This document shows positions 42,265-43,299 of a stretch of DNA of 64,000 nucleotides, piece by piece. Where the stretch lies: NCBI RefSeq assembly GCF_003334385.1, contig NZ_QOWN01000001.1. One strand, given 5' to 3'. This stretch comes from Escherichia coli. Lineage in GTDB: Bacteria; Pseudomonadota; Gammaproteobacteria; Enterobacterales; Enterobacteriaceae. The notes under the pieces are model-generated. The model had not been told where the DNA came from. It was given only the letters and a program-made list of their open reading frames with translations, and made no database searches. Each line of letters opens with the position of its first letter. Within the stretch, counting starts at the first letter, position 1. Both the position numbers and the translations under genes were made by a program.

Positions 42265-43299
42265 ATGATGAACAGCACCAATAAACTTAGTGTTATTATT
42301 CCGTTATATAATGCGGGCGATGATTTCCGCACTTGTATGGAATCTTTAATTACGCAAACCTGGACTGCTCTGGAAATCATTATTATTAACGATGGTTCAA
42401 CGGATAATTCTGTTGAAATAGCAAAGTATTACGCAGAAAACTATCCGCACGTTCGTTTGTTGCATCAGGCGAATGCTGGCGCATCGGTGGCGCGTAATCG
42501 TGGGATTGAAGTGGCAACGGGCAAATATGTCGCTTTTGTCGATGCTGACGATGAAGTCTATCCCACCATGTACGAAACGCTGATGACCATGGCGTTAGAG
42601 GACGACCTCGACGTGGCGCAGTGCAACGCTGACTGGTGTTTTCGTGAAACGGGAGAAACCTGGCAATCCATCCCCACCGATCGCCTTCGCTCAACCGGCG
42701 TATTAACCGGCCCGGACTGGCTGCGGATGGGGCTTTCTTCGCGCCGTTGGACTCACGTTGTCTGGATGGGGGTTTATCGCCGTGATGTTATTGTTAAAAA
42801 TAACATTAAATTTATTGCCGGATTACATCATCAGGATATTGTCTGGACAACAGAATTCATGTTTAACGCGCTGCGTGCGCGATATACCGAGCAATCATTA
42901 TATAAATATTATCTGCATAATACGTCAGTGAGTCGGTTGCATAGACAAGGGAATAAAAACCTTAATTATCAACGTCACTATATTAAGATTACCCGCCTGC
43001 TGGAGAAATTAAATCGAAATTATGCCGACAAAATTATGATTTATCCGGAATTTCATCAGCAAATAACTTACGAGGCATTGCGTGTTTGCCATGCGGTGCG
43101 CAAAGAGCCGGATATTCTTACCCGCCAACGGATGATTGCCGAGATATTTACTTCCGGTATGTATAAGCGCCTGATTACCAATGTGCGCAGCGTGAAGGTC
43201 GGTTACCAGGCGTTACTGTGGTCTTTCCGCTTATGGCAATGGCGCGACAAAACGCGGTCGCACCATCGCATTACGCGTAGCGCCTTTAATTTGCGCTAG
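42265..43299 (+). CDS. waaH: GT2-family glycosyltransferase WaaH (YibD)
   Basis: 344 aa, MMNSTNKLSVIIPLYNAGDDF, DXD motif VDADDE. Confidence 0.88.
   Translation: MMNSTNKLSVIIPLYNAGDDFRTCMESLITQTWTALEIIIINDGSTDNSVEIAKYYAENYPHVRLLHQANAGASVARNRGIEVATGKYVAFVDADDEVYPTMYETLMTMALEDDLDVAQCNADWCFRETGETWQSIPTDRLRSTGVLTGPDWLRMGLSSRRWTHVVWMGVYRRDVIVKNNIKFIAGLHHQDIVWTTEFMFNALRARYTEQSLYKYYLHNTSVSRLHRQGNKNLNYQRHYIKITRLLEKLNRNYADKIMIYPEFHQQITYEALRVCHAVRKEPDILTRQRMIAEIFTSGMYKRLITNVRSVKVGYQALLWSFRLWQWRDKTRSHHRITRSAFNLR

Follow-up and report, generated by a model that had tools for sequence, protein, structure and literature searches.

Two short tail-to-tail gene overlaps in Escherichia coli, waaH/yibQ and ligB/yicG, and where their transcripts appear to end

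When two genes that face each other share their last bases, where do their transcripts end, and do the shared bases do anything beyond closing two reading frames? We asked this of a 64,000-nucleotide (nt) stretch of Escherichia coli DNA (contig NZ_QOWN01000001.1 of assembly GCF_003334385.1), hereafter the window, in which waaH (yibD) and yibQ overlap by 14 nt at their 3′ ends, and ligB and yicG by 4 nt. A first-pass annotation, made from the letters of the DNA, had pointed out both overlaps and argued that they leave no room for terminators and can cause transcriptional interference or antisense effects. We consider it quite probable that these are two ordinary short tail-to-tail overlaps of unrelated, independently transcribed genes, that the transcripts end inside the coding sequence of the partner, and that the overlaps have no regulatory role. 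Most likely, both arose neutrally as the genome was compacted.

The overlaps themselves are real. The 14 nt shared by waaH and yibQ and the 4 nt shared by ligB and yicG at 12853-12856, as first described, are borne out by the open reading frames (ORFs), by the raw sequence, by the RefSeq records annotated with PGAP, and by the annotation of MG1655 (Table 1). The window is E. coli chromosome of K-12-like type, lying as the reverse complement of MG1655 with few indels against it, such that a window position W converts to a K-12 position as 3832346 - W near waaH/yibQ and as 3832344 - W near ligB/yicG. Across the window this offset moves by 1-3 nt at around W13800, 16500, 47300 and 62700; for several 60-mers there is no exact counterpart in MG1655. 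The curated MG1655 ends agree for both pairs (yibQ 3788101..3789060 against waaH 3789047..3790081; yicG 3818874..3819491 against ligB 3819488..3821170), the RefSeq/PGAP records give identical ends for both, and both overlaps are kept in divergent E. coli strains (approximately 96-97% nucleotide identity). A 2.6-kb query spanning the waaH/yibQ junction is present in 5425 of 5426 complete E. coli genomes, and a 2.5-kb query spanning the ligB/yicG junction likewise in 5425 of 5426. Different true stops on re-annotation would undo the overlaps, yet the stop positions are unchanged in PGAP and MG1655, and re-annotation cannot move them, since they are fixed by the reading frames and all four products are real proteins. 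WaaH matches the NCBIfam equivalog NF007482 over residues 1-334 of 344 (633 bits against a cut-off of 423), and LigB matches the equivalog NF005987 over residues 1-559 of 560 (900 bits against a cut-off of 498). YibQ carries Pfam PF04748 across residues 28-238 and has full-length homology in 80 species.

Table 1. Window coordinates of the two overlaps, their genes, and the elements at which the facing transcripts may end (CDS, coding sequence; LPS, lipopolysaccharide; UTR, untranslated region).
Feature	Position	Strand	Details and basis
waaH (yibD) CDS, UDP-glucuronate:LPS(HepIII) glycosyltransferase	42265..43299	+	stop TAG 43297-43299; ORF, RefSeq and MG1655 annotation
yibQ CDS, last in the gpmM-envC-yibQ run	43286..44245	-	stop TAA 43288-43286 (TTA on +); ORF, annotation
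waaH/yibQ 3′-end overlap, 14 nt	43286..43299	both	sequence; yibQ stop sits on conserved (L/F)-N codons of WaaH
yibQ 3′-UTR hairpin	43236..43269	-	13 bp, 2 G-U pairs, 8-nt loop, no U tract, then CAUAAGCGG; within waaH codons
Rho termination region antisense to waaH	~42900..43020, peak 42962, imprecise	-	PMC7815308 Supp. file 2
ligB CDS, NAD-dependent DNA ligase B	11174..12856	+	stop TAG 12854-12856
yicG CDS, PF03458 / TRIC-family inner membrane protein	12853..13470	-	stop TAA 12855-12853 (TTA on +)
ligB/yicG stop-sharing overlap, 4 nt, TTAG	12853..12856	both	TAG on +, TAA on -
yicG intrinsic-terminator-like element	12797..12833	-	9-bp stem, 7 G-C pairs (12833-12808), 8-nt loop, then UUCUUGAUUU
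Rho termination region antisense to ligB	~12360..12480, peak 12422, imprecise	-	PMC7815308 Supp. file 2

For yicG, a hairpin scan and folding locate a hairpin that begins 20 nt beyond the yicG stop and is followed by a U-rich tract, within the last ~17 codons of ligB. Scanning the whole window for such elements (a stem of at least 8 bp with at least 5 G-C pairs, and a T tract) returned 22 hits, nested loop sizes being counted separately (~10 distinct sites), compared with a mean of 1.9 in shuffled sequence. Chance thus does not account for the yicG element. In the TRS study (PMC10687069, Supp. Data 2-4), a 'Primary' 3′ terminus is given for yicG at K-12 3819540/3819542 (+), with a signal of 0.945-0.947 in two datasets; it maps to window ~12802-12804, which is 7-8 nt beyond the stem. 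In the same table the signal of the canonical tdh terminator is 0.948, like that of yicG. Further on, Adams et al. (PMC7815308) report a bicyclomycin-sensitive Rho termination region at K-12 3819922 (+) (Rho score 18.3, p 2.7e-56), which lies antisense to ligB, 431 nt past the yicG stop and ~380 nt beyond the hairpin element; over +0 to +430 past the stop, this RNA is rich in C and poor in G. Taking the 3′ end from this published mapping, we infer from the anatomy of the element that it is an intrinsic-type terminator embedded in ligB, and Rho appears to remove yicG read-through. The arrangement resembles that of other intrinsic terminators embedded in a convergent neighbour, in that a GC-rich stem with its 8-nt loop, the U-rich tail after it and a 3′ end mapped 7-8 nt on all lie in ligB codons. 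It differs from them in that the U tract is broken and a strong Rho region lies downstream, and termination may be incomplete or mixed.

The yicG hairpin is kept in Salmonella and Citrobacter freundii with one compensatory change, G-C to A-U, which in the ligB strand amounts to a Gly to Ser replacement plus a synonymous Ala change. The U tract is weaker in both (Salmonella, GUUUUGAUCU; C. freundii, GCUGUGACCU), and in more distant genera the C-terminus of LigB has diverged and the hairpins are different and weaker. In one Salmonella enterica genome (GCA_017844855; survey locus L084, 3112-4963) ligB is broken into several short ORFs and looks like a pseudogene, and the yicG hairpin is intact.

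For yibQ, the RNA beyond the stop folds within waaH codons into the longer hairpin of Table 1, which has no U tract. The same TRS tables (PMC10687069) give the primary yibQ terminus as K-12 3789114 (+), with a signal of 0.52. This corresponds to window ~43232 (peak 43224-43233), which is 4 nt beyond the stem, 54 nt on from the yibQ stop and 67 nt into waaH. Here too a bicyclomycin-sensitive Rho region follows, at K-12 3789384 (+) (Rho score 5.55, p 1.8e-15; PMC7815308), 324 nt past the yibQ stop and antisense to waaH. Dar & Sorek 2018 (PMC6061677) described Rho-dependent transcripts with a precise steady-state end after a stable, U-less stem-loop that shields the RNA from 3′ exonucleases. The yibQ transcript is like these in that it ends right after a U-less stem-loop and shows bicyclomycin-sensitive read-through downstream; it is unlike them in that both hairpin and Rho zone lie inside the CDS of another gene, and a C>G bias is not evident.

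In none of the 31 species with waaH in the survey described below does a hairpin with a T tract follow the yibQ stop within 130 nt. An intergenic yibQ terminator in species that lack waaH was also considered and rejected, being present in 1 of 39, most of which carry other genes in the same slot. The hairpin as a conserved RNA structure was likewise rejected: an ungapped alignment of 19 species gave no covariation above shuffles, although the hairpin exists in E. coli. Elsewhere in the gpmM-envC-yibQ run, a strong minus-strand 12-bp hairpin with a T-rich tail lies at window 45434-45460, within the 5′ part of the envC frame. An 'alternative primary' terminus is assigned to envC in the TRS tables, and the sequence printed there matches window ~44160-44109 (-), inside yibQ, not the hairpin at 45434-45460.

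These observations suggest how the two junctions could work. In each pair, an ORF would simply read on until the first stop that it meets inside its neighbour. At ligB/yicG this is plain sharing of stop codons through TTAG; at waaH/yibQ an unconserved YibQ tail runs on to a stop formed by the conserved Leu/Phe-Asn codons of WaaH. The yicG transcript would end at the intrinsic-type terminator in ligB, with residual read-through halted by Rho ~430 nt on. The gpmM-envC-yibQ transcript has no U-tract terminator. RNA polymerase would carry on into waaH in the antisense direction and be halted by Rho before it has gone more than a few hundred nt. The yibQ RNA would then presumably be trimmed back to the 13-bp hairpin, which lies 20-54 nt beyond the stop and would protect it, a step we propose by analogy with Dar & Sorek 2018. 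Thus the view that the overlaps leave no room for terminators holds for intergenic space only; it is otherwise misleading, because the 3′-end signals of yibQ and yicG are inside the partner gene. In the published 3′-end maps both ends sit at hairpins; the terminators are embedded in the partners, not missing. The concern over interference and antisense effects is compatible with the data as a possibility. Antisense read-through does exist, and it is curtailed, as the bicyclomycin-sensitive Rho regions antisense to waaH and ligB indicate, while nothing that we found shows interference or regulation.

If the overlaps arose as suggested, the part of YibQ that enters waaH should be free to vary, and it is. 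We compared one genome per species at 80 Enterobacteriaceae yibQ loci, 31 of which have an intact waaH convergent to yibQ. The conserved core of YibQ terminates at ..QWQGW, and beyond it is a tail of 1-14 residues (the last ~11 residues in E. coli), conserved in neither length nor sequence. YibQ thus shows what the stop-codon-mutation model describes, a 3′ extension to the next in-frame stop with an unconstrained tail. The spacing between yibQ and waaH is -14 nt in 11 of the 31 species, drawn from 7 genera (E. coli, E. albertii, Salmonella enterica subsp. diarizonae, four Citrobacter, Leclercia, an Enterobacter sp., Silvania and Cedecea). The figure is -4 for 5 species (Kluyvera, Pseudescherichia and one metagenome-assembled genome), 0 for 10 (the C. 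freundii group and Kluyvera ascorbata), and from +6 to +113 for the remaining 5. Where it is 0, the YibQ stop directly follows QWQGW. Where it is -14, the stop, TAA or TGA, is the reverse complement of the conserved (Leu/Phe)-Asn codons of WaaH (xTT-AAy or CTC-AAT), and it is because the yibQ stop is formed by these codons that the 14-nt overlap persists across genera.

What lies between yibQ and tdh differs among the Enterobacteriaceae, this slot being a variable cassette (survey loci L073, 3401-4189 (-); L060, 3972-6107 (+); L080/L081/L083/L045, downstream of yibQ; window 42027-43299). It may hold waaH of the E. coli type or a variant 63-67% identical to it (C. freundii group, Kluyvera). In Klebsiella pneumoniae it is occupied by an unrelated 262-residue GT2 glycosyltransferase gene 5 nt from the yibQ stop, in Enterobacter cloacae by two co-directional genes between yibQ and tdh, and in a few species it is empty, tdh then lying 36-41 nt from yibQ. 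In E. coli FDAARGOS_1267 (locus L097, ~1-2500) a prophage resembling Mu (Mor activator, gp16 family) interrupts waaH in its 3′ part, at about window 43114 and ~170 nt before the junction; yibQ is intact there and its 3′ hairpin region is probably kept.

The yicG/ligB overlap, like that of waaH and yibQ, is old. The same 4 nt are also shared in C. freundii, Leclercia adecarboxylata, Kluyvera cryocrescens, Cedecea colo and Salmonella enterica, and in Buttiauxella the overlap is 7 nt. In Atlantibacter (locus L086) an acyltransferase-3/SGNH gene (3426-5393, +) lies between yicG and ligB (from 5355, -), and overlaps ligB convergently by 39 nt, so that a longer tail-to-tail overlap stands in place of the 4-nt one. 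In one Enterobacter ludwigii genome (locus L091, 3119-5108) no ligB is called.

Short convergent, or tail-to-tail, overlaps of prokaryotic genes are a known class, which Rogozin et al. in 2002 and Fukuda et al. in 2003 reportedly treated as well. The two pairs belong to it: all four are real protein-coding genes, the partners lie on opposite strands, and a few nt at their stop-proximal ends overlap. In E. coli, Lillo & Krakauer 2007 (PMC2174442) counted 58 convergent overlaps with a modal length of 4 nt, named CTAA, TTAA, CTAG and TTAG as the four-base overlaps with shared stops, reproduced the distribution of phases with the stop-codon-mutation model, and found a rho-independent terminator within the partner for 23 of the 116 genes involved. 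The TTAG of ligB/yicG is one of these canonical four, and the 14 nt of waaH/yibQ agree with a reading frame lengthened up to the next stop within the neighbouring gene. We see no difference in kind from the class, save that the 14-nt overlap has stayed unusually constant from genus to genus, because its stop is on conserved WaaH codons. According to the MG1655 feature tables, the window holds ten convergent junctions (yibU/yibH, mtlR/yibT, trmL/cysE, yibQ/waaH, waaL/waaU, coaD/mutM, slmA/pyrE, yicG/ligB, recG/gltS and yicH/yicI), eight of which have gaps of 11-168 nt. Two overlaps among ten is no more than chance would give. A literature search found no paper naming both waaH and yibQ. The overlaps are real, ordinary and already known, in the sense that everything about them is annotated or present in public datasets.

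The facing transcripts, those of waaH and ligB, are less well defined. A search for canonical terminators after their stops yielded only a weak 6-bp hairpin at 43362-43381 (present on both strands), with counts no higher than in shuffles, and was rejected; fold z-scores downstream of the waaH and ligB stops are -0.73 and -0.71. The TRS tables list no 3′ termini for the ends of waaH or ligB (PMC10687069), as both genes are probably weakly expressed in the media used. Their transcripts are probably terminated by Rho within the antisense of yibQ and yicG, respectively. At its other end, waaH has a leader hairpin (window 42194-42233, +) followed by a published 5′-UTR 3′ terminus at K-12 3790113 (window 42233; PMC10687069), and its ORF has a Rho region 39 nt from the start, at K-12 3790042 (window 42304, +; Rho score 5.8; PMC7815308). 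The 5′-UTR terminus together with the early Rho region suggests premature termination, or leader attenuation, of waaH. The Pho box CTGTCATAWAWCTGTCAY, allowing up to 3 mismatches, had no match in the window, and thus the waaH promoter was not located.

Several points weigh against the reading of the overlaps as neutral, with transcripts ending at signals in the partner gene. The yibQ terminus is modest, since its signal of 0.52 is accompanied by an adjusted p of 0.089 in one replicate, and the curated Term-seq list of Adams et al. (PMC7815308) has no 3′ end at either hairpin or near either junction, so that the yibQ and yicG termini rest on the TRS datasets. The Rho regions were called from 800-nt windows, making their positions approximate, and the antisense RNA induced by bicyclomycin could come from internal antisense promoters instead. 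With regard to the yibQ hairpin, 65.6% of its cells are paired in the alignment compared with 64.2% after shuffling, 68 of 500 shuffles do as well or better, and the covariation score falls short of their mean. The RNA downstream of it has a C/G ratio of 0.9-1.3 over +0 to +230, with the first clear C>G window at +450, and hence no evident rut-like bias. The yicG tract UUCUUGAUUU is imperfect, with 7 U in 10, interrupted. Lastly, the spacing between yibQ and waaH is 0 nt or less in 26 of the 31 species, and so tight a junction could reflect selection rather than neutrality.

One alternative is antisense regulation resembling an excludon, in which the stronger partner of each pair represses the weaker through transcriptional interference or through cleavage of the duplex by RNase III. 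The two mRNAs of a pair would be mutually complementary, over a minimum of 67 nt in yibQ/waaH and of 53 nt in yicG/ligB, and constitutive read-through from envC-yibQ might, for example, damp waaH until PhoB induces it. The concept as reviewed includes convergent genes with no intervening terminator (PMC7154746), and both pairs resemble such excludons and overlapping 3′ UTRs (Sesto et al. 2013; PMC7154746) in being convergent, with no intergenic terminator and with overlapping transcripts. In keeping with it, the mapped yibQ and yicG 3′ ends fall inside the partner ORFs, bicyclomycin raises antisense RNA 5.5-fold over waaH and 18-fold over ligB, and the near-zero spacing of yibQ and waaH is widely kept. 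Moreover, double-stranded RNA fragments of RNase III captured with p19 (PMC7373196) map inside yibQ (43992-44080) and the 5′ part of ligB (11444-11467), showing that sense and antisense RNA do pair within these genes. However, the sites of pairing are 700-1400 nt from the junctions and may stem from unrelated antisense promoters. The mapped RNA overlaps span only tens of nt, ends defined by hairpins together with Rho limit longer read-through, and the partners have no obvious functional opposition. The length of the overlap varies (-14, -4, 0 and positive) and the YibQ tail is free of constraint, which is what a neutral feature would show. Furthermore, the different glycosyltransferase that stands 5 nt from yibQ in Klebsiella argues for packing rather than for a specific gene pair. 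We therefore regard excludon-like regulation as unlikely.

A stronger form of this proposal is that the near-zero spacing between yibQ and a glycosyltransferase gene, in the 26 species and, with its 5-nt gap, in Klebsiella, has been selected because the transcription units regulate each other. Were this so, Rho-limited read-through from gpmM-envC-yibQ would silence waaH until PhoB-driven transcription overrides it, and induced waaH would in turn trim the output of envC-yibQ, giving a conserved excludon that joins a cell-division and envelope operon to the remodelling of LPS under phosphate starvation. We hold this to be more doubtful still. As for the overlaps themselves, we saw no evidence that they regulate anything.

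Another possibility is that the 3′ ends are set by collision, with converging RNA polymerases stopping each other in the overlap and thereby defining both ends. The summary in bioRxiv 10.1101/2022.10.23.513370 describes bidirectional terminators, attributed to Ju et al. 2019, as prevalent between convergent E. coli genes, and as a class that is unlike intrinsic or Rho terminators, involves a stem-loop and is Rho-independent. A class with a stem-loop at convergent pairs of this very organism, and a yibQ hairpin with no U tract, are what speak for such a mechanism here. Yet mapped termini at the two junctions are found on the yibQ and yicG strands only (PMC10687069). Given that expression of waaH and ligB seems low under the mapped conditions (neither has a listed terminus at its end, and waaH has the early Rho region noted above), collisions should be rare, while the model, in the same account, reports higher efficiency for highly expressed pairs. 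In addition, yibQ and yicG read-through is sensitive to bicyclomycin, whereas the collision class, as presented there, is Rho-independent, and the yicG element is built like an intrinsic terminator. Collision thus seems to us very improbable as the source of these ends.

That one gene of each pair really ends earlier, the overlap being an artefact of annotation, has next to no chance of being correct: the last ~11 residues of YibQ do vary between genera and lie outside the Pfam domain, but the stops are set by frames that YibQ homology in 80 species and the WaaH and LigB equivalogs support, the MG1655 and PGAP annotations coincide, and the overlaps are conserved across genera.

Beyond the hairpins already described, an Rfam scan of window 10000-46000 gave no match at either junction. 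Its single hit was the JUMPstart RNA element (RF01707, 55 bits) at window 24126-24164 (+), in the leader of the waaQ LPS-core operon, which is its expected location.

Our conclusion is that the two overlaps matter little in themselves, and serve rather as a worked example of how a transcript can end where facing genes share their last bases. Should they serve cross-regulation after all, which is unlikely, they would provide two conserved enterobacterial examples of the excludon type. On the reading that we prefer, they present two solutions to the same problem, the yicG terminator being written in the codons of the neighbour, and the end of yibQ being made by Rho plus a protective hairpin. This corrects the idea that such convergent overlaps have no terminators. 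It also means that the LigB residues concerned and the yicG terminator are dual-coded, a small constraint to bear in mind when ligB or waaH is to be recoded or deleted, since a clean deletion of either would strip the neighbouring gene of its 3′-end signals.

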